64,000 bases of DNA, taken from an uncultured Actinomycetes bacterium. GTDB taxonomy: Bacteria; Actinomycetota; UBA4738; HRBIN12. This document shows, in pieces, positions 51,944 to 59,949 of this stretch. The stretch lies in the NCBI GenBank assembly GCA_963704885.1, contig CAVPIB010000007.1, forward strand, positions 32,001-96,000, written 5' to 3'. Numbering within the stretch: the first letter of the stretch is position 1; each line of letters begins with the position of its first letter. The position numbers and the translations under genes are program-made. Under the pieces are notes generated by a model. That model ran no database searches. It was not told the DNA's origin and worked only from the letters and a program-made list of their open reading frames with translations.

Positions 51944-53978
51944 ACGCCGCGACCGACGCACTCGTCGTCTTCACGCCCTCGGGCCAGCGGGGGCGGTTCG
52001 CGCACGGGACGAACCTTCTCGACGCGGCTCGCGCTCTGGGCGTGGATCTGGACTCGGTCTGCGGCGGGCGCGGGATCTGTGGGCGCTGCCAGGTGGTCGT
52101 GGCCGAGGGCGAGTTCGCGAAGCACGCGATCACGTCCAGCGCGGAGCACCTGACGCCTTTCTCGGCACCGGAGCAGGCCTATCGAGACCGATCCGGTCTG
52201 GCGCCGGAGCGCAGATTGGGTTGCCATTCGCGCGTGCTCGGGGACCTGGTCGTGGACGTGCCGCCGGAGAGTCAGCTCCATCGACAGGTCGTACGGAAGG
52301 AGGCCGACGCCCACGCGATCGAGGTCGATCCGGTCGTTCGGCTGCATTACGTCGAGGTGCGCGAGCCGGACATGAGCGATCCGTCCGGCGATCTGGAGCG
52401 CGTGCTCGAGTCATTGGAACGAGATTGGTCGCTCACCGGGCTGGACTGCGACGACCATGTGCTCGCGGTCCTACAGCGAACCCTTCGCGCCGGCGACTGG
52501 ACGGCGACGGTCGCCGTGCACGACGGTTCGACGATCGTGGGTGTTTGGCCGGGGTTCCACGACCGCATGTTCGGTGTGGCCTTCGACGTGGGGTCGACCA
52601 CCGTGGCGGGACACCTGTGCGACCTGGCGAGCGGGGAGGTCCTGGCGTCGGCCGGCGCCATGAACCCGCAGATCCGGTTCGGCGAGGATCTGATGAGCCG
52701 TGTGTCCTACCTGATGATGAACCCAGGCTCGGAGGGCGAGCTGACGCGCGTGATCCGGTCGTGCGTGAACGAGCTGACCGCGGAGCTTTGCTCGCACGCC
52801 GGCGCCGACGCGACGGACATCCTGGCGCTCACCGTGGTCGGGAACCCGATCATGCACCATCTCTTCCTGGGCCTGGACCCGACCGAACTTGGCGGCGCGC
52901 CGTTCGCCCTGGCCACGGACGGCGCCGTGCACCGGCGGGCCTCTGAGTTCGATCTCCACGTGCACCCCGGCGCGCGTGTATACCTGTTGCCCTGCATCGC
53001 GGGTCATGTGGGTGCGGACACCGCAGGCGTGATCCTGTCCGAGGCGCCCTACGACCAGGAGACCGTGAACCTGATCGTCGATGTCGGGACCAACGCCGAG
53101 ATCGTATTGGGCAACCGCGATCGACTGCTGGCCGCGTCTAGCCCGACCGGCCCTGCGTTCGAAGGCGCTCAGATCAGCTGCGGTCAGCGGGCGGCGCCCG
53201 GCGCGATCGAACGCGTCCGGATCGATCCGGCGACGTTGGAGCCGCGATTCAAGGTGATCGGCAACGACGCGTGGTCTCGACGAAACTGGGTTCGACGCAT
53301 CGCAGGTCACGGGCGTGTGCGGCTCCGGGATCATCGAGGTCGTGGCCGAGATGTTCCTTGCGGGCATCCTCACCACCGACGGCGTGATCGACGGCGGGCT
53401 CGCCTCGCGGACCCCGCGCATCGTTTCCGACGACCGTACGTTCTCCTACGTGCTGCACGAGGGCACGCCCCACCTCGCGATCACGCAGCCGGACATCCGA
53501 GCCATCCAGCTCGCCAAGGCCGCGCTGTATGCGGGGTGCCGGTTGTTGATGGATCACCTCGGTATCGACCACGTCGATCGGATCCGGCTGGCCGGGGCTT
53601 TCGGCGCCCAGATCGATCCGGTGCACGCGCTGATCCTGGGCCTGGTCCCCGACTGCGACCCGTCGCACGTGACGTCCGCCGGCAACGCGGCGGGTACGGG
53701 AGCGCGGATCGCCCTGCTCAACCGTGCCGCGCGCGCCGAGATCGAGGGATGTCGTTCGTCGGGTGGAGAAGATCGAGACGGCCCTGGAGACGCGGTTCCA
53801 GGAGCACTTCGTGGGCGCCATGGGGATCCCACACACGACGGAGCCGTCTCCGCGGCTGGCCGAGGTCGTGGAGCTCCCCGCCCCGCGCACGTCGGGCGGC
53901 GTCACCGGGAACGACCGCCGGAGACGCCGCCGCGTGCCCACGCCCGCAGACGGCACCGACGGAAGGAGCACCGGATGA
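51940..53978 (+). CDS. ASKHA/DUF4445 reductive activator of corrinoid proteins (RACo); apparent 1-bp insertions near 53276 and 53747
   Basis: [2Fe-2S] CGGRGICGRC, DVGSTT, NPQIRFGEDLMSR, DVGTNAE, TGPAFEG; next frames give CGSG, QLAKAA, LAGAFG, GNAAG and KIETALETRFQ. Confidence 0.88.
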
Positions 53979-55519
53979 GCGACGAACCCAGGACCGGGCG
54001 AAGGACCGGCGGCCGCGCCGGGAGGCAGGCCGCCCGGCTGGCCGCGGCGCCGGAGCGTGTGCCGTTCATCACCCGGACCCTGCCGCCGTTCGAGGTGCTT
54101 GCCACCGAAGGGCTCGAGCTGATCGAGAACAACGCCGACACGATCTTGGAGCAGGTGGGGATCGACTTCCGCGGCGCACCCGACGCCTTGAAGCTGCTGA
54201 AGGAGGCCGGAGCCGACGTCGACGGCGAGCGCGTCAGGTTCCCTCGGGGGATGTGTCGCCAGCTGATCCAGGCGACCGCCCCGCCGGTGTTCACGCAGTA
54301 CGCGCGCAACCCCGCCAACAACGTCCAGATCGGCGGCGACGCCACGGTCCTGGCGCCCGCCTACGGCTCTCCGTTCGTCCGCGATCTAGACGGTGGACGC
54401 CGGTACGGCACGATCGAAGACTTCCGCAACTTCGTGAAGCTCGCGTACTCGACGCCGTACCTCCATCACTCCGGCGGGACGGTCTGCGAGCCGGTCGACC
54501 TGCCGGTGAACAAGCGGCACTACGACATGGTCTACGCGCACATGCGGTATTCGGACAAGCCGTTCATGGGCTCGGTGACGCATCCGCAGCGCGCCCAGGA
54601 CACGGTGGATATGGCCCGGATCCTCTTCGGTGAGGACTACCTGGAGGACCACACCGTTGTCATGAGCCTGATCAACGCGAACTCGCCACTCGTATGGGAC
54701 TCGACCATGCTGGGCGCCGCGCGCGCGTACGCGCAGGCGAACCAGGCTGTGATCATGACTCCGTTCATCCTGGCCGGGGCTATGAGCCCGGCCACGGTGG
54801 CAGGCGCCGCGGCGCAGACGCTCGCCGAGTCCATGGCCGGCATGACGTACGTGCAACTCGTCCGCCCCGGGGCGCCGGTGGTGTTCGGGTCGTTCGCGTC
54901 GTCGATGTCCATGCAGTCGGGCGCGCCGACGTTCGGCACGCCCGAGCCCGCGCTGGTGCTCTACATCCTGGCGGCGTGCGCACGGAGGCTGAACGTGCCG
55001 TTCCGCAGCGGCGGCTCCCTGTGCGGATCCAAGATCCCGGACGCACAGGCGGCGTACGAGTCGGCGAACACGCTGCAGCCAACCATCCTGGGCGGCGCGA
55101 ACTTCGTGCTGCACGCGGCGGGCTGGCTGGAAGGCGGGCTGACCATGGGTTACGAGAAGTTCGTGATGGACCTGGATCAGTGCGGCATGATGCATGCGTT
55201 CGCGAAGGGAGTGGACCTGTCGCCCAACGGCCAGGCGCTGGACGCCATCATCGAGAACGGACCCGGCCAGCATTTCCTGGGGACGGCTCACACCTTGGCC
55301 AACTTCGAGACAGCGTTCTACCGGTCGTCGATCGCCGACAACAACAGCTACGAGCAGTGGGAGGACGACGGCTCGCTCGACGCGACTCACAGATCCGATG
55401 CCATCTGGAAGAAGATGTTGGCCGACTACGAGCCACCGCCGATAGATGAAGCGGTGGATGCAGAGCTACGAGACTGGATCGAGCGGCAGAAGGCCTCCTT
55501 CCCCGACTCGAACGTGTAA
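53975..55519 (+). CDS. Non-pyrrolysine MttB-superfamily methyltransferase (glycine betaine:corrinoid MT, MtgB-like)
   Basis: CEPVDLP, SDKPFMG, NANSPL, GAMSPAT, GAPTFGTPE, SKIPDAQAAYES, HAAGWLEGG; no in-frame TAG. Confidence 0.92.
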   Translation: MSDEPRTGRRTGGRAGRQAARLAAAPERVPFITRTLPPFEVLATEGLELIENNADTILEQVGIDFRGAPDALKLLKEAGADVDGERVRFPRGMCRQLIQATAPPVFTQYARNPANNVQIGGDATVLAPAYGSPFVRDLDGGRRYGTIEDFRNFVKLAYSTPYLHHSGGTVCEPVDLPVNKRHYDMVYAHMRYSDKPFMGSVTHPQRAQDTVDMARILFGEDYLEDHTVVMSLINANSPLVWDSTMLGAARAYAQANQAVIMTPFILAGAMSPATVAGAAAQTLAESMAGMTYVQLVRPGAPVVFGSFASSMSMQSGAPTFGTPEPALVLYILAACARRLNVPFRSGGSLCGSKIPDAQAAYESANTLQPTILGGANFVLHAAGWLEGGLTMGYEKFVMDLDQCGMMHAFAKGVDLSPNGQALDAIIENGPGQHFLGTAHTLANFETAFYRSSIADNNSYEQWEDDGSLDATHRSDAIWKKMLADYEPPPIDEAVDAELRDWIERQKASFPDSNV

Positions 55520-55533
55520 CCGGAAGGAACCGA

Positions 55534-56409
55534 GTGGCCCTGACGCTTCGACGACGCAAGCAGCACGAGCCCACCCCAGATGAGCGGGGGGCGCTGGCGG
55601 CACTCGTCGCAGGAGCCAAGCTCGAGGTCATCCCGCTCCTGAACGCGCTCGGAACCTGCGAGGCCCTGCCACCCGGTTCGATGGTGACGGTCACCTCGTC
55701 TCCGAGCCACGGGATCGAGGCGACCGTCGAGCTGGCCGAGAAGCTCGCGACGCTCGGCCACACCGTCATCCCGCATCTGTCCGCGCACATGATCTGGACA
55801 CGCCAGCACCTCGAGGACCTGCTGGAGCGCCTGGCGGAAGGAGGCTTCCGTCGCGTGTTCGTCGTGGGCGGCGACGCCCAGGACCACGGCGACTTCCACG
55901 ACGGCCTGTCGTTGCTCCGCGCCATCGACGAGCTCGGCCGTCCGTTCGACGAGATCGGCGTGCCCTCCTACCCCGAGGGTCACCCCAGGATCTCCGACGA
56001 GCGGCTGCTGGAGGTCCTGCTCGAGAAGCAGCGGTACGCGTCGTACATGACCACGCAGATGAGCTTCAACCCGAGCGCCATCGCCGGGTGGATCGGCCGG
56101 ATGCGCGCCTCCGGGGTGACGCTACCGGTCCACATCGGCCTGCCCGGCGTCGCGGACCTCACCAAGCTCATGACGATCGCGGCTCGGATCGGCGTGGCCG
56201 ACTCGGCCCGCTACCTGAAGAAGAACCGCAACCTGATCGGCCAGGTGATCAAGGGTCGTTTCGGCCCCGACGCGCTGCTGCGGGAGCTGGCCCCGACCCT
56301 CGCGGATCCCGCGGCCGACGTCGCAGCGCTCCACGTCTTCACGTTCAACCAGGTCGAGAGAACCGTGGCCTGGCAGCGCGGCATGCTTGGCTCGCTGAGC
56401 ACGGGCTGA
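55534..56409 (+). CDS. metF: Methylenetetrahydrofolate reductase family protein
   Basis: PHLSA, VFVVGGD, YPEGHP, TQMSF, HVFTFN. Confidence 0.8.
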   Translation: MALTLRRRKQHEPTPDERGALAALVAGAKLEVIPLLNALGTCEALPPGSMVTVTSSPSHGIEATVELAEKLATLGHTVIPHLSAHMIWTRQHLEDLLERLAEGGFRRVFVVGGDAQDHGDFHDGLSLLRAIDELGRPFDEIGVPSYPEGHPRISDERLLEVLLEKQRYASYMTTQMSFNPSAIAGWIGRMRASGVTLPVHIGLPGVADLTKLMTIAARIGVADSARYLKKNRNLIGQVIKGRFGPDALLRELAPTLADPAADVAALHVFTFNQVERTVAWQRGMLGSLSTG

Positions 56410-56473
56410 GGGCTCGCGCGCACCGGGCCGCACCCCCGTAGGTGCCCAGAGTGAGGCGAGGCGAAGCGTCTCC

Positions 56474-57244
56474 TCAAGGCTTCACGGCGCGGATCGGGTA
56501 CCCGTAGGTTCCGAACTGCCGGGCCTGGTCTTCACCGCCGGCTCCGCCGAACGTGTCAACGATGGGTCCGAACTCCACCTCGGTGAGGCCCGCGCCCTGG
56601 ATCACCGTCACCCACCCTGCGCACGGCAGGGCACCTGCTATTCAGCCGGTCCAAAGATCGATGTCGCTGAGCGCGGACTCAGGGACGGGTTCCTCGACGC
56701 AGATGTCAGCGATCTGGGCGCGACCGCCTGGCTTCAGGACCCGGGCGATCTCCCGGTAGGCGCCGAGCTTGTCCGGGACGAGGTTGATCACCCCGTTCGA
56801 GATAACGACATCTGCCCATCCGTCGTCCACAGGGAGCTTCTCGGCGAAACCGTCGCGGAACTCGACGTTTGGGATCTCAGCCTCTTCGGCACCCTCCCGA
56901 GCCCGCTCGAGCATCTCGGGCGTCATGTCGACGCCGACGACGCGCCCTTCGACGCCGACGGCGTTGGCCGCGACCATGGCGTCCATGCCGGTTCCTGAGC
57001 CGACGTCGACGACGCGCTCCCCGGGCCGGGGCAAGCCCCAATGGAACGGGTTGGCTACGCCGGCGAACGACGCGATCGAGGACTTCGGGAGCCCTTCCAA
57101 CCACTCGTCCAGATAGCCCGCATTAGCCGCTGCGCGGAGACCGGTATGGAAATGGAACGTGGCGTCAGGGTGCTCGACGACCTCCACGTACTTGGTCCGG
57201 ATCTCATCGCGCAGCTTGGCGACGTCCACCGCGATCCCGGCCAT
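56474..57244 (-). CDS. ArsM-like SAM-dependent methyltransferase, probable selenoprotein (TGA 56642-56644 = Sec201; 256 aa)
   Basis: VVDVGSGTGMD, GVDMTPEM, ISNGVINL, LKPGG, then LWTG-TGA-IAGAL and 55 open codons in total to the TGA at 56474; GAGGAG RBS before ATG 57244. Confidence 0.85.
56614..56632 (-). promoter_or_regulatory. Putative bacterial SECIS element
   Basis: mRNA GCCCUGC-CGUGC-GCAGGGU; Watson-Crick stem starts +11 and the GU-containing loop starts +17 after the UGA. Confidence 0.7.
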
Positions 57245-57256
57245 GGTCTTCACTCC

Positions 57257-57622
57257 TCACGCGAACGCCACGGTCTTGGCGCCCGCCACGACCTCCTCGA
57301 CCACCTTGGCCGCGCCGACGATGATAGACCCCTTGCGCACCTGCTCTTCGCCGATGCCCCTGGGCTTCGCGCAAGCCCCACAGATCCAGACCGTGCCGCC
57401 GTTGTCCACGAACTCCTGGTAGAGGTCGTCCAGGACGGGCAGTCCCGGCTGGGCGATGCCGTCCGTTCCGTCCGTGGTCCCGAGCCAAACGGCCTCGATC
57501 GTGCAGAGGACCACTGCTTCTTGCCCGGCCGTCGCTGCGATGTTTGCTGCCACGAAGGGGAGCGTCGCCCGCTCTGGTTCCTCCTTGCCGTACGTGCAGT
57601 TGAAGATCAGCTTCTCGCTCAT
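57257..57622 (-). CDS. DsrE/DsrF-like protein
   Basis: TYGKEEPERATLPFVAA, CTIEAV, ICGACAKPRG, IVGAAKV. Confidence 0.88.
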   Translation of the reverse strand: MSEKLIFNCTYGKEEPERATLPFVAANIAATAGQEAVVLCTIEAVWLGTTDGTDGIAQPGLPVLDDLYQEFVDNGGTVWICGACAKPRGIGEEQVRKGSIIVGAAKVVEEVVAGAKTVAFA

Positions 57623-57624
57623 CC

Positions 57625-58266
57625 TCACCGTCTCCTTTCCACCGTCATCAGGAGGCGTCCGTCATCGGGCGTCTCTATCGATCGAACCTCATGTCCCATC
57701 ATCCGGGCCAGCGGAGGCAGATCCTCTTTCGCCGCGGGATCACGCGCGGTCACCACGAGCACGTCGCCGACCGGGATCGCTCCGATCCGCCGACGGAACT
57801 CCGTGGCCAGGCCGTCAGCGCACCCGAGGTCGCCCGCGTCGTAGGGATGGGCGCCGCTCGACTCATCTCCAGGCCCCATGACCGGAAGGAAGCCCGAGCA
57901 CAGGAGATCGATCCCTTCTAGGCGCCCGTCCGGCGCGACGTCGGCCACCACATGTTGCTCGATCACCTGCCAACCGTCGGCATCGTGGAGGCTGAACCGG
58001 TACGTGAGCACCAGCCGGTCCGCCACGGTTCCGACGTTCGAGGACTCGAGGCGCAGCTCGTCGACGTCTCCGTACCAGCCGACGAACGCCTCAACCGCTT
58101 CGGCGACTCCCGAGTGAGCTTGCGGTCCTTTGGGCAGGAGCAGTCGGAACCGCACGTCGTCGGCGATCAGCGCGTGGAACCTCACGAAGTCGCGATCCGC
58201 AAGGGCCTTGACGAAAGCCTCCCCAACCTTCTGCATGAGGTCTTCGGAGGTCGTTGCGATGGTCAT
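57625..58266 (-). CDS. SnoaL/NTF2-like domain fused to TusA-like sulfur carrier
   Basis: N-part 'FVKALADRDF...IADDVRFR..LP...IEQH...IDLLCSGF'; C-part 'YDAGDLGC...GDVLVVTARDPAAKEDLP...GHEV'. Confidence 0.8.
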   Translation of the reverse strand: MTIATTSEDLMQKVGEAFVKALADRDFVRFHALIADDVRFRLLLPKGPQAHSGVAEAVEAFVGWYGDVDELRLESSNVGTVADRLVLTYRFSLHDADGWQVIEQHVVADVAPDGRLEGIDLLCSGFLPVMGPGDESSGAHPYDAGDLGCADGLATEFRRRIGAIPVGDVLVVTARDPAAKEDLPPLARMMGHEVRSIETPDDGRLLMTVERRR

Positions 58267-58299
58267 GAGGCGACGATAGGCAGAGCGCGCCCGTGCCAC

Positions 58300-58331: not shown

Positions 58332-59897
58332 TCAGTCGGCTACGGCAGCCACGTCGATCAAGCCATGCCGCATCGCGAAGAGCGCAGCCGCACCGCGGCT
58401 CCTTACGCCGAGTTTGGCGTAGATGTGCTCCTCGTGGTTGCTGACCGTCTTGGCCGAGATGGTCAACTCCTGCGCGATCTGCTTCTGGGTCGATCCGCGA
58501 GATAGCAGTACCAGTACCTCGACCTCGCGGGCGGTGAGCCCGCCCGCATGGCTCGTCTTACGGCGCACCCGATGCCCGGCTGCGTCCAGCACCGCGCGAA
58601 CGGCGTCGCCGTCCAGGCGACCATCGGTCACCTCCGCTGTGAGCACTGTTCGGGCCTCGTCCCGCGGCCACGCGGCGCGATGGGGTCGCGGTTCCAGCAG
58701 CGCGTGGTACACGTCGGCGGCCGCGATCACACGTGCGGTCATCGGGAGGCTGTCGGCCGTTAGGCCCGACGGGTAGCCGGATCCGTCCATCCGCTCATGG
58801 TGCTTCGCCGCGAGCTGCCCTATCGCGGCTAGAGGCGGGGGCTTGGAGAACGTTCGCGCCGTGAGATAGGGATGGGTGCGGATCCGCTCTCGTTCGGCCT
58901 CGGTGAGCGGCCCGACCTTGTCCAAGATCCCGGCCGGAACACCGATGGAACCTACGTCGTGGATGAGCGAGGCTCGACGCACGAGCACGATGTCGTCGTT
59001 AGGCAGACCGACGATGGCGGCCGCGGCCGCCGCAAGATCCGCGACGCCTCGGGAACGTCCGAGCAAGAACGGCGACTTCACGTCCGCGTAGTCGGCGAAG
59101 GCTTCCAACGCTCGATCGAGTTCCTCACCGCTGAGCTCACGCGCCAGCTCGCCGTGCCCGCCGATCAGCGTGTCCCAGCCGTCGAGCTCGTCTATGGAGG
59201 CGAGCAGCTCGTCGGCATGGATGCAGAACCGGTCGACGAGCTCTGGATCGAACTCCGTGCCACGTCGGGAGCGAAGCATCTCGACAGCCGCGTCCACCCC
59301 GCCTATCCGATGTAGGGCCTCAACGTCGTTGGCGATATGGACGATCCGCGCTATGCGGGCGATCTCGCCACCCGCCAACTTGGCCGGATAGCCCTTGCCG
59401 TCCCAGCGTTCGAACGCTTGCTGCAGCGGGTCACGCACTTCGGGACCCAGTCCGAGTCGGAGCGACAGGTCGCCCGAGGTCTCACAGTGGGAGGCCATCG
59501 AGCGCTGGACCTCCTTAGACCCGCCCGCGAGGAACCTGCCGATCATCGTGAACCGCCGGATCGCCGAGCTCCCGCTGGCGACGTGACCGATCATGAAGCG
59601 CATCATCGGCAAACCGGTCATGTCGACGAGGTAGCTGTCGGCCCGCACGGCTGTGTCGTCGCCGAACCACTTGCCCATCTCGTGCGCGTCGGCCACGCAA
59701 CCGACCCACGCGAGGAGCGACACGTAGAAGATCGCGGCCCGCTCGTCGTCGGACAGGCCCTCGAGCTCGGCCATGCGCAGGGCGATAAGCGTCTGCCGGA
59801 TGATGTGCTGCTGCGGTTGACCCAGTCCTAGATCCGTCGCCAGCGACAGCGCCGCCACCAGCTCAGCTAGCCGAACGCCGTCTCCGGCTCCCGTCAT
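58332..59897 (-). CDS. Double HD/HD-GYP domain protein with C-terminal LuxR HTH
   Basis: LAELVAALSLATDLGLG, degenerate first domain (ERWDGKGYP), second domain HDVG...HHERMDGSGYP, LTAREVEVL...ISAKTVSNH..IYAKLGV. Confidence 0.93.
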   Translation of the reverse strand: MTGAGDGVRLAELVAALSLATDLGLGQPQQHIIRQTLIALRMAELEGLSDDERAAIFYVSLLAWVGCVADAHEMGKWFGDDTAVRADSYLVDMTGLPMMRFMIGHVASGSSAIRRFTMIGRFLAGGSKEVQRSMASHCETSGDLSLRLGLGPEVRDPLQQAFERWDGKGYPAKLAGGEIARIARIVHIANDVEALHRIGGVDAAVEMLRSRRGTEFDPELVDRFCIHADELLASIDELDGWDTLIGGHGELARELSGEELDRALEAFADYADVKSPFLLGRSRGVADLAAAAAAIVGLPNDDIVLVRRASLIHDVGSIGVPAGILDKVGPLTEAERERIRTHPYLTARTFSKPPPLAAIGQLAAKHHERMDGSGYPSGLTADSLPMTARVIAAADVYHALLEPRPHRAAWPRDEARTVLTAEVTDGRLDGDAVRAVLDAAGHRVRRKTSHAGGLTAREVEVLVLLSRGSTQKQIAQELTISAKTVSNHEEHIYAKLGVRSRGAAALFAMRHGLIDVAAVAD

Positions 59898-59949
59898 CTC
59901 CCCAGGGTACAAGTGCACGCAGCTGGCCTGGGGACCGCCCGACAGCGGG

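Follow-up and report, generated by a model that had tools for sequence, protein, structure and literature searches.

A methyltransferase gene in a 64,000-nucleotide stretch of DNA from an uncultured Actinomycetes bacterium (hereafter the window) very probably encodes a genuine selenoprotein, whose C-terminal part lies hidden behind a UGA codon. Read through this codon, the coding sequence (56474..57244, minus strand) comprises 256 residues and a stop and specifies a SAM-dependent methyltransferase of the ArsM fold. Its selenocysteine (Sec) at residue 201 corresponds to the in-frame UGA at 56642..56644 (minus strand), which occupies the third arsenic-binding Cys position of ArsM. An earlier note had proposed this reading from the letters of the DNA, and it is now supported by a Cys/TGA pair among homologues, by a covarying hairpin that agrees with the bacterial SECIS (bSECIS) model and by the presence of selA, selB, selC and selD in the genome. 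During translation, SelB-GTP-Sec-tRNA(Sec) would bind this hairpin in the mRNA, and Sec would be inserted at residue 201 to give the 256-residue protein. Our confidence concerns the identity of the enzyme and not its substrate, which is considered separately below.

A conserved frame across an in-frame UGA

The annotated open reading frame ends with ...DIDLWTG at the TGA at 56644-56642. The same frame then runs through 55 sense codons (56477..56641, minus strand; IAGALPCAGW...IRAVKP) before it reaches the true stop, a TGA at 56476-56474 (minus strand), exactly as the earlier note had described. Translation starts at the ATG at 57244-57242, a start site that is matched in homologues (e.g. locus L025, MAGIAVDV), and a GGAG at 57253..57256 (minus strand), 8 nt upstream of the ATG, is the likely ribosome-binding site. 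The sequence further contains the SAM-binding motif VVDVGSGTG.

For comparison we used 80 related loci that represent no fewer than seven phyla; the family alignment holds 81 sequences, among them 69 Sec forms. At the codon aligned to position 201, TGA is found in 68 of the 80 loci, while 11 loci have TGC (Cys) and one has TAG, so that the Cys/TGA pair which the earlier note had suggested looking for does exist and is followed by conserved sequence. In all 80 loci the frame past codon 201 is open and conserved over an identity range of 50-92%, continuing for 51-85 codons (mostly 55-57) to true stops at the matching place (46 TGA, 22 TAG, 11 TAA, one contig end). Conservation begins directly past the UGA with the invariant residues I202, A203 and G204 and extends to the invariant G219 and A241; conservation reaches 90% or more at D230, F232, G234, A235, G248 and A253. 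When 41 genomes of relatives were searched, the gene was found in ten, and each of the ten carriers has exactly one in-frame TGA. The ten Cys forms in the tree make up one group (support 94) that is nested among the Sec forms. One carrier of the TGA form, Pseudonocardia zijingensis CGMCC 4.1545 (L090), is a cultured organism.

Structure prediction is consistent with an uninterrupted protein. The AlphaFold2 model of the read-through product has a pLDDT of 94.4 and a pTM of 0.92, and the extension, with a pLDDT of 91-98, is in this model part of the methyltransferase fold, to which it contributes two helices (208-217 and 238-244) and two strands (221-225 and 247-254).

Gene callers, by comparison, cut the methyltransferase at residue 200. 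Of the best 120 homologues in the databases (71-95% identity), 119 are annotated with 195-221 amino acids, and all 120 end at one common site, since each spans just 76-78% of the query. These annotations, together with a GTG-started ORF of 45 codons at 56611-56474, would suit an ordinary stop that yields a 200-residue product, with a relic or an independent small gene behind it. We regard this explanation as very unlikely. The invariant residues 202-204 precede that GTG, the downstream frame is open at every locus compared, eleven relatives carry Cys within one continuous ORF, the extension adds secondary structure to the predicted fold, and a covarying hairpin lies at SECIS distance from the UGA.

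Two observations on individual members of the family may be added. The TAG at codon 201 occurs in locus L064 only, and in the fragmented genome of this locus neither a tRNA-Sec above the cut-off nor selA was found; a UAG-decoding tRNA-Sec has reportedly been observed. An additional Cys at position -8 was considered as a general need of Cys forms. It is present in the 11 near relatives, and the rule fails in more distant Cys-form representatives.

A covarying SECIS-type hairpin

The hairpin reported in the earlier note, CCCUGC-CGUGC-GCAGGG, does begin at the 11th nucleotide past the UGA. A closing G-U pair extends its stem to 7 bp, giving a SECIS-type element at 56614..56632 (minus strand) with the stem GCCCUGC/GCAGGGU and the 5-nt loop CGUGC (56621-56625). 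Counted from the U of the UGA, this stem occupies nucleotides 13-19 and 25-31, i.e. it begins 9 nt past the UGA. The bSECIS model, as described in PMC13188914, allows a loop of 3-9 nt and a stem of 4-16 bp, requires a G at the first or second position of the loop, and limits the distance from UGA to loop to 16-37 nt and the minimum free energy (MFE) to at most -7.5. With its 5-nt loop, a stem of 7-8 bp, G at loop position 2, a spacing of 16 nt and an energy of -11.3 to -12.4 kcal/mol, the element lies within all of these limits, and it covaries across the Sec forms.

This covariation was analyzed in the 66 distinct sequences among the 69 Sec forms. There, 95.9% of hairpin cells are paired, compared to 22-52% in slid controls, and two pairs are compensatory, exchanging CG and GC in 20 sequences and CG and UA in ten. 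None of 500 shuffles reached the observed value. The local MFE also separates the two forms of the gene, with -12.2 in the 69 Sec forms and -7.7 in the 11 Cys forms (p 7e-6). At the gene's own stop the best hairpin reaches only -4.1 kcal/mol and fails the SECIS model, so that a SECIS-like element is absent behind the true stop, and no such hairpin follows the stop of the neighbouring DsrE-like gene.

Considered by itself, the hairpin of this one sequence is not significant and provides weak evidence, because among 6000 random TGA trinucleotides from the same genome 2.5% are followed by one as good and 10.3% by one that satisfies the minimal SECIS model. Its weight comes from conservation, namely the codon pattern in the 80 loci and the covariation. 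Synonymous resampling gives moderate support only: 16% of the resamples of the sequence itself fold as well, and 27 of the 69 family sequences reach a value of 0.05 or less. Global folding past the UGA was rejected as a test, being uninformative in GC-rich DNA: the fold of the 58 nt past the UGA is unremarkable (z -0.27), and the 54-nt MFE is alike in Sec and Cys forms (-20.0 and -19.9, p 0.76). The local hairpin and its covariation were therefore used instead. A search against Rfam returned no match at E values up to 1 within 56400-56800.

Selenocysteine machinery in the genome

The complete decoding apparatus, which the earlier note had named as a check on its reading, is encoded in the genome. 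We identified a tRNA-Sec (70.9 bits) with the anticodon TCA (UCA) as well as selA (493 bits), selB (321 bits) and selD (373 bits), these three above their cut-offs; the 64-kb window itself contains no tRNA. The genome also carries a second selenoprotein gene, of the FdhA type, which reads CNRT-U-HAPS. Among the family members tested, selA is present in five of five genomes with the TGA form and in two of five with the TGC form.

These data bear on a further explanation, in which the UGA is read without selenium, either by a near-cognate tRNA for Trp or Cys or after reassignment of the codon. Leaky read-through of UGA occurs in bacteria generally. As an account of this gene, it is hardly credible: UGA serves as the true stop of the gene itself, of its DsrE-like neighbour and of 46 of the 80 homologues, the genome encodes the complete Sec machinery and the UGA is followed by a specific hairpin, three of the five Cys-form genomes are without selA while all five TGA-form genomes tested have it, and relatives never replace Sec by a residue other than Cys.

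An artefact of assembly or sequencing at 56642-56644, or a pseudogene, can be dismissed almost entirely, as the TGA also occurs in 68 independent public genomes and nine further relatives, and contigs of relatives that span the site show, among 40 differences listed (there are 144 more), none at these positions. These contigs come from a comparison with public sequencing runs. The best run contains only 0.20 of the sampled words, and three DNA runs and one RNA run compared at 85% likeness yielded contigs of relatives only; the synonymous sites 56636 and 56639 are among the differences listed.

An ArsM fold with altered arsenic ligands

In Foldseek searches with the predicted structure, ranks 1-12 are all ArsM/AS3MT proteins (TM up to 0.73, E 7e-19). 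Judged from this model, the protein is an ArsM/AS3MT fold that consists of a SAM-binding Rossmann domain and a substrate-binding domain and is devoid of the third domain. Profile searches agree with this assignment: Pfam identifies Methyltransf_31 (107 bits), and the best NCBIfam matches are of the ArsM type. On the ArsM model NF008823 the protein scores 199.1 bits, below the cut-off of 263, and six Cys-form members of the clade score 187-225 bits. Elsewhere in the genome, behind an ArsR gene, a canonical three-Cys ArsM paralogue reaches 302 bits on the same model. The low score and the canonical paralogue lend support to the earlier note's idea that the substrate is handled in a non-canonical way.

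Alignment to the solved ArsM structures 5evj and 4fr0 places the UGA at the Cys of CLAGAL/CLGGAL (pattern C-[IL]-[AG]-G-A-L), while GCGNP aligns with GVANP and SNCV with SNGV. The arsenic-binding residues are presumably C72, C174 and C224 in the algal ArsM and C206 in human AS3MT, and we take the position of Sec201 to be that of C224 in the enzyme of the 4fr0 series. The replacement of the other two arsenic-binding cysteines, noticed earlier in the single sequence, holds for all 81 family sequences, in which the Cys-1 position is never Cys and the Cys-2 position is always Gly. Likewise, Cys is missing from the Cys-2 position in each of the 21 representatives that stop at the Sec site and can be aligned there (20 Gly, one gap). 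The protein belongs to a large unnamed clade in which Val, Thr or Met fills the Cys-1 position, Gly the Cys-2 position and either Sec or Cys the Cys-3 position, and which is separate from the three-Cys ArsM proteins.

One detail of the earlier description has to be revised and another softened. The W-x-G in front of the Cys, which it took for an ArsM feature, is specific to this clade (DLWTG), and the solved ArsMs read ...GEC... instead. Its view of the protein as an enzyme with a single chalcogen nucleophile may not hold, as Cys208 (+7), conserved in 46 of the 69 Sec forms, or Cys183, conserved in 33, could provide a second thiol. An invariant HFHTG occupies the part of the N-terminal lid that holds a Cys pair in canonical ArsM; the correspondence is uncertain, with BLASTP leaving the region unaligned and hhalign placing gaps there.

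Comparison with known systems

A Sec-containing ArsM-type enzyme is as such already known, having been on the list of prokaryotic selenoproteins since 2007, and three NCBIfam models describe Sec-ArsM fusions. Table 1 of Zhang et al. 2026 lists an 'arsenite methyltransferase' (UxxG, NF008823) as 'experimentally verified', citing Fomenko et al. 2007, and the same selenoprotein is named in reviews from 2020 and 2022. The protein studied here resembles the catalogued type in reading U-I-A-G in an ArsM-type domain, at the third arsenic-binding Cys position. It differs in its NF008823 score, which is below the cut-off as given above, and in the loss of Cys-1 and Cys-2. The catalogued protein may well share this loss, given that none of the 21 Sec-truncated representatives has a Cys at the Cys-2 position.

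Canonical ArsM/AS3MT enzymes (the 4fr0, 4fsd and 6cx6 series, 5evj, 8xt7 and the genome's own arsR-linked paralogue) share the fold, the SAM-binding motif and the C-[IL]-[AG]-G-A-L loop at about 30-41% identity. In the present protein, however, Val takes the place of Cys-1, Gly that of Cys-2 and Sec that of Cys-3, HFHTG stands roughly where the N-terminal Cys pair is found (in a gapped, uncertain alignment), and with the third domain absent the chain measures 256 residues instead of roughly 320-390. The genomic setting is different as well, with a neighbourhood of the sulfur-relay type here and ArsR alone next to the canonical gene.

The Sec-ArsM fusion families NF041537 (ArsM/AhpD), NF041536 (ArsM/DUF2284) and NF047649 (methyltransferase/UXPK-star) are credited to Haft and Tolstoy 2025 in the review. 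They have the U-x-x-G motif in common with our protein, and NF041537 is its best-scoring curated model with 227 bits over residues 6-224, compared to 166 bits for the canonical paralogue. Yet all three matches cover the methyltransferase part only and remain far below the cut-offs (227 vs 510 for NF041537, 197 vs 575 for NF041536 and 192 vs 460 for NF047649). AhpD, DUF2284 and the C-terminal UXPK are absent from our protein, which ends with ...IRAVKP and has one Sec where the fusions have two or three. Across 301 genomes of the phylum, no true NF047649 member scored above the cut-off.

Enzymes that could work in a similar way are MddH, MddM1 and MddM2, described in the available passages of PMC12904073 and PMC11445057 as SAM-dependent S-methyltransferases for H2S and methanethiol that are common in Actinomycetota, Chloroflexota and Acidobacteriota. 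They are likewise small class-I SAM methyltransferases acting on a small chalcogenide, and this is the only respect in which we compare them. By their description in these passages they belong to UbiG- and UbiE-type subfamilies, which sets them apart, and the passages contain no occurrence of 'ArsM', 'arsenite' or 'selen'. Within the set of papers searched, we found no description of a clade without Cys-1 and Cys-2 or of its sulfur-relay neighbours.

Gene neighbourhood and possible substrates

The methyltransferase gene is preceded by a gene for a DsrE-like protein (57257..57628, minus strand; PF02635, 41.7 bits), which terminates 12 nt ahead of the methyltransferase start codon. This neighbour is the single match of the DsrE-like profile in the whole genome and has a C-x-x-C motif (C83, C86) that is invariant in 14 sequences. 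Its start overlaps by 4 nt with a second upstream gene, which encodes a fusion of SnoaL-like and TusA-like domains (57625..58299, minus strand; PF12680, PF01206). Further upstream, a protein with an HD-GYP-type domain and a LuxR-type HTH (58332..59918, minus strand) may be the regulator of the operon; its NCBIfam hits, which are weak, fall among NosR-family c-di-GMP phosphodiesterase response regulators and among LuxR-type regulators. The convergent MttB/MTHFR genes are unrelated to the selenoprotein operon.

When the window's own neighbours were used as tblastn queries at the 80 loci, DsrE was found at 14, SnoaL-TusA at six, HD-GYP/LuxR at nine and MTHFR at none, and given these low counts the exact operon of the window is not a rule of the family. 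A broader pattern emerges for functional classes: rhodanese, DsrE or TusA is encoded within 3 kb at 36 of the 80 loci, compared to 0.9% of random windows from the genome studied here (the one genome used as background). The other 44 loci lack all three within this distance, and TusA is seen at four to six loci. Recurrent neighbours also include ArsR-type regulators and MFS transporters, at eight loci each, which would fit an arsenical too.

The association with rhodanese, DsrE and TusA suggests a sulfur or selenium species as substrate rather than arsenite. On the basis of this gene neighbourhood we tentatively propose that the selenolate could form a single Se-X bond to a substrate other than As(III), more likely a chalcogen, and so keep it close to the methyl group of SAM; the proposal may well prove wrong. 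Such a chalcogen, be it sulfane sulfur, selenium or tellurium, would be handed over by the flanking rhodanese, DsrE or TusA proteins, the selenolate would position it beside the methyl group, and a resolving thiol, provided by Cys208 or by the C-x-x-C motif of the DsrE-like protein, would then set the methylated product free. It is rather doubtful whether the idea can be extended to the whole [V/T/M]-Gly-[Sec/Cys] clade, which at present carries the labels 'arsenite methyltransferase' or 'SAM-dependent methyltransferase' and is for the most part truncated in databases, as a Sec-dependent methyltransferase for sulfane sulfur or selenium that is not an arsenic enzyme. In that case rhodanese, TusA and DsrE would place the chalcogen on the selenolate (as Se-S or Se-Se), methylation by SAM would follow, and a resolving thiol would free methanethiol or methaneselenol.

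Alternatively, the protein might be a real selenoprotein and still an arsenic enzyme, in which a trivalent arsenical or antimonial, for example methylarsenite, is bound by Sec201 and perhaps also by Cys208 and then methylated. A substrate of this type needs fewer ligands than As(III), which would be left to the canonical paralogue, and ArsM variants remain active on methylarsenite when their N-terminal cysteines are missing. The best family and structure matches, all of them ArsM/AS3MT, favour this explanation, as do the name given to the catalogued UxxG selenoprotein, the ArsR-type regulators and MFS transporters near the gene and the retention of Cys208 in two thirds of the Sec forms (46/69). 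We nevertheless consider it unlikely. Two cysteines suffice for methylarsenite, but Cys-2 is one of these two, and this position is Gly throughout the family. Moreover, the score stays under the ArsM cut-off, Cys208 is missing in 23 of the 69 Sec forms, the ArsR-type neighbours are fused to rhodanese, and the neighbour clusters that recur include no arsC, arsB or acr3.

Implications for selenoprotein annotation and chalcogen biology

With the 120 closest homologues in the collections searched all cut at the Sec codon and no NCBIfam model that rescues the stand-alone Sec form, the enzyme is misannotated across at least seven phyla. Its recognition adds a clear selenoprotein to lineages little studied for selenium use, e.g. 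uncultured Actinomycetota and Dormibacterota, and the cultured P. zijingensis makes this selenoprotein testable. The homology name 'arsenite methyltransferase' is probably wrong for the clade, because each of the 81 sequences lacks two of the three arsenic ligands and the genome encodes a canonical ArsM besides. Counts of arsM in metagenomes that include the clade would hence overstate the arsenic-methylating potential.

If the chalcogen reading is true, the enzyme would represent a new selenoenzyme chemistry, and methylation of this kind would link the use of selenium to the production of sulfur or selenium gases. It would then be part of an unrecognised route of sulfur or selenium volatilisation in Actinomycetota, Chloroflexota and Dormibacterota of soil and sediment.

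Reading frame and homologues

The minus-strand gene at 56474-57244 encodes an ArsM-like methyltransferase and starts with an ATG at 57244-57242, with a GGAG 8 nt upstream. After ...DIDLWTG the frame meets an in-frame TGA (56644-56642, residue 201), beyond which 55 sense codons (IAGALPCAGW...IRAVKP) remain open up to a second TGA at 56476-56474, where the frame ends. In a mechanical ORF list, a 203-codon ORF represents the 5' part, while the 3' part appears only as a 45-codon GTG fragment. Direct reading of the sequence reproduced all coordinates and strings quoted in the earlier note, which had interpreted the gene as a hidden selenoprotein. This interpretation holds in view of the TGA/TGC pair, the conserved extension, a covarying hairpin and the selenium machinery of the genome, and we consider it very probable that this is a real, previously unannotated selenoprotein gene.

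When one genome was scanned for each species, 529 stretches encoding a relative were identified, and the best 80 were used. In all 80 loci the tblastn match passes through the stop to about residue 256. The codon at residue 201 is TGA in 68 (Sec forms), TGC in 11 (Cys forms) and TAG in one, so that the Cys/TGA pair with conserved downstream sequence anticipated in the earlier note is present. The frame beyond this codon is open for 51-85 codons, mostly 55-57, in every locus and its protein sequence is conserved; it ends on TGA (46), TAG (22), TAA (11) or the contig end (1). Of the best 120 matches in a large protein collection, which are 71-95% identical, 119 have a called length of 195-221 amino acids and all 120 cover only 76-78% of the query, which means that these homologues are cut at the same codon. 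The organism's own relatives carry the gene in 10 of 41 genomes (one of them, G317, flagged unpublished), each time with exactly one in-frame TGA. In a quick maximum-likelihood tree, midpoint-rooted and with a long outgroup branch, the 10 Cys forms included cluster together with support 94, nested within the 69 Sec forms.

The single TAG (L064:3592-3594) belongs to a Geodermatophilus MAG record, in which the downstream frame is conserved and the hairpin sequence is identical to that of several Sec forms. UAG-decoding tRNA-Sec have been reported. The locus might depend on such a tRNA or, alternatively, be a recent pseudogene; in its fragmented genome neither selA nor a tRNA-Sec over the cut-off was found.

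The SECIS-type hairpin

Counting the U of the UGA as nucleotide 1, nucleotides 13-19 pair with 25-31 to form a SECIS-type hairpin (56632-56614, minus strand; GCCCUGC/GCAGGGU around the loop CGUGC). The review by Zhang et al. 2026 (PMC13188914) describes the bacterial element as a loop of 3-9 nt on a stem of 4-16 bp, with a G within the first two loop positions, 16-37 nt from UGA to loop and an MFE of at most -7.5 kcal/mol. The window hairpin agrees on all four points, having a 5-nt loop, a stem of 7-8 bp, a G at loop position 2 followed by U, a spacing of 16 nt and -11.3 kcal/mol. On its own it is weak evidence: of 6000 random TGA trinucleotides of the source genome 10.3% satisfy the model and 2.5% equal the window hairpin, the 58-nt fold after the UGA has a z of -0.27, and 16% of synonymous resamples fold equally well.

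It is family-wide conservation that makes the case. In a gapless alignment, the 69 Sec forms, 66 of which are distinct, show pairing in 95.9% of 462 hairpin cells; sliding the partners by 1-3 columns as a control leaves only 22-52% paired. At pair 14-30, 39 sequences have C-G and 20 have G-C; at pair 15-29, 48 have C-G and 10 have U-A. The observed covariation was matched by none of 500 shuffles. The compensatory change at 14-30 couples a non-synonymous Ala-to-Gly with a synonymous GGG-to-GGC exchange. Local MFE over nucleotides 10-36 is -12.2 kcal/mol in the 69 Sec forms versus -7.7 in the 11 Cys forms (Mann-Whitney p 7e-6). The support from synonymous resampling is no more than moderate: values of at most 0.05 were reached by 27 of the 69 Sec forms and by none of the 11 Cys forms. 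Neither the true stop of the gene (best -4.1) nor that of the upstream gene (-4.5) has such a hairpin.

Selenium machinery

The source genome (3.0 Mb, 20 contigs, 97% complete) encodes the whole set of selA, selB, selC and selD whose presence the earlier note had left to be checked. Its tRNA-Sec scores 70.9 bits, with anticodon TCA by ARAGORN; selA (493 bits) adjoins selB (321 bits), and these as well as selD (373 bits) exceed curated cut-offs. selD occurs twice at an equal score of 372.7 bits on two small contigs (G000:C20:5731-6654 and G000:C14:8433-9356 of this genome), either by real duplication or by assembly redundancy. Among genomes carrying the methyltransferase, whose completeness is not stated, selA is over the cut-off in 5/5 with the TGA form and 2/5 with the TGC form; G305, one of these two, is flagged unpublished.

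A molybdopterin oxidoreductase of the source genome (G000:C4:58963-59412; locus L106:1201-2250) reads ...CNRT-U-HAPS... across an in-frame TGA. This corresponds to the UHxP motif of Sec-containing formate dehydrogenase, listed as such in the review (PMC13188914), and the protein is probably a second selenoprotein.

Fold and arsenic ligands

Pfam assigns the protein to the class-I methyltransferases (Methyltransf_31, 107 bits). Its best matches in NCBIfam are without exception ArsM-type models, and none reaches its cut-off (NF041537, 227 vs 510 bits; NF008823, 199 vs 263; NF041536, 197 vs 575; NF047649, 192 vs 460). AlphaFold2, run with an alignment of 79 read-through sequences, gave a pLDDT of 94.4 and a pTM of 0.92. 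The extension is predicted to contribute helix 208-217, strand 221-225, helix 238-244 and strand 247-254 (block pLDDT 91-98), so the fold of a product ending at residue 200 would be incomplete. In a Foldseek search the first 12 ranks are all taken by ArsM/AS3MT structures, with E-values down to 7e-19 (6cx6_B: TM 0.73, rmsd 2.7). Fused forms also exist in the clade (P0128, P0133, P0140, P0122, P0146, P0002): DUF2652 with a methyltransferase cut at the Sec site, a CMD/AhpD-like domain with two methyltransferase domains, a Cys-form methyltransferase with MerC, and a single gene call uniting ArsR-HTH and rhodanese with the methyltransferase.

Aligned by phmmer with 5evj and 4fr0-type ArsM, the UGA falls on the Cys of C-L-[AG]-G-A-L, while GCGNP is replaced by GVANP and SNCV by SNGV. 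The loss of the other two arsenic-binding cysteines, claimed in the earlier note for this protein, extends to all 81 aligned sequences: Cys-1 is V/M/I/T with no Cys, and Cys-2 is always Gly. A wider search of 150 representatives revealed two clean patterns, namely C-C-C in 59 and, in a large set, [V/T/M]-Gly followed by Cys or by the end of the called protein. Of the representatives ending at the Sec site, 21 align at Cys-2 and none has a Cys there (20 Gly, 1 gap), and six full-length Cys-form members of the [V/T/M]-Gly set score 187-225 bits on NF008823, below cut-off. In alignment A2 of the family, an extra Cys 8 residues upstream of the active-site Cys (A-x-C-x-I-D-L-W-T-D-C) occurs in 11/11 TGC forms versus 0/69 Sec forms; more distant Cys-form representatives mostly lack it. 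A Cys at +7 is found in 46/69 Sec forms, the window protein included. The N-terminal HFHTG motif (H31, F32, T34 and G35 invariant, H33 at least 90%) sits in the region of the canonical ArsM N-terminal Cys pair, where the alignment is gapped.

A canonical paralogue lies elsewhere in the source genome, directly behind an ArsR-family gene (G000:C1:890809-891342; locus L104:986-2085). This short ArsM (247 residues, 41% identical, 302 bits on NF008823) has all three arsenic-binding cysteines in GCGNP, SNCVINL and GCIAGAL.

Gene neighbourhood

Three genes lie upstream on the same strand. The stop of the first, a DsrE-like gene (57257-57628), is 12 nt from the ATG, and a SnoaL-TusA fusion overlaps this gene by 4 nt; the third encodes an HD-GYP/LuxR-type regulator. 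The DsrE-like gene is the sole match to the DsrE profile in the whole source genome, and close to their C-terminus the DsrE-like neighbours have a C-x-x-C (CGAC or CPIC) that is invariant in alignment A3. This exact operon is not the rule across related loci. Iterated profiles detect rhodanese (27), DsrE (14) or TusA (4) within about 3 kb in 36/80 loci, and in 29/58 loci with full flanks; the background with these profiles is 0.9% of random 6.75-kb windows, taken from the source genome only. ArsR-rhodanese fusions and MFS transporters also recur, at 8 loci each, as do rhodanese-metallo-beta-lactamase fusions at 5, DUF1326 at 4 and OsmC at 3.

At least three loci, L040 (d1), L057:4380-5180 and L067 (u1), hold what look like second, tandem Sec-type paralogues. 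Their motifs are ...PSAWAG-TGA-V[AS]GALAERVF... and ...NIDLWAG-TGA-IAGALLEAEL..., with 60-73 further open codons; that of L067 has a long N-terminal extension. On the plus strand of the window, a single uninterrupted frame at 53315-56409 encodes both a RACo C-terminal domain (residues 1-145) and, at residues 230-730, a full MttB-family methyltransferase. Together with the following MTHFR-like gene, which was found at none of the 80 related loci, it makes up a cluster for methyl-group metabolism that is convergent to the selenoprotein gene.

Possible function and novelty

In the mechanism we envisage, SelB would read the hairpin and insert Sec201, and the selenolate would take the place of the third arsenic ligand beside the SAM methyl. 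The loss of the tri-thiolate site and the presence of a canonical ArsM in the same genome lead us to think that the substrate is not As(III). The gene neighbours tentatively suggest that a chalcogen delivered by sulfur-relay proteins is methylated on the selenolate and freed by a resolving thiol. Articles on H2S and methanethiol methyltransferases (PMC12904073, PMC11445057) place these, in the parts available, in other class-I subfamilies of the same phyla, giving chalcogenide methylation a precedent, though not for the present clade. The main functional rival would be an arsenical or antimonial methyltransferase with a reduced ligand set, which we regard as rather unlikely.

The observation and interpretation of the earlier note stand, and only the novelty it assumed was too high. 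The review (PMC13188914) cites Fomenko et al. 2007 for 'arsenite methyltransferase' (NF008823, motif UxxG), which it counts among the experimentally verified selenoproteins of prokaryotes, and it also includes three Sec-ArsM fusion families that it credits to Haft and Tolstoy 2025; reviews of 2020 and 2022 list the same arsenite methyltransferase selenoprotein. The kind is therefore already known. The stand-alone Sec form is captured by no curated model and is cut short in databases, and interest now centres on what the clade lacking Cys-1 and Cys-2 uses as its substrate.
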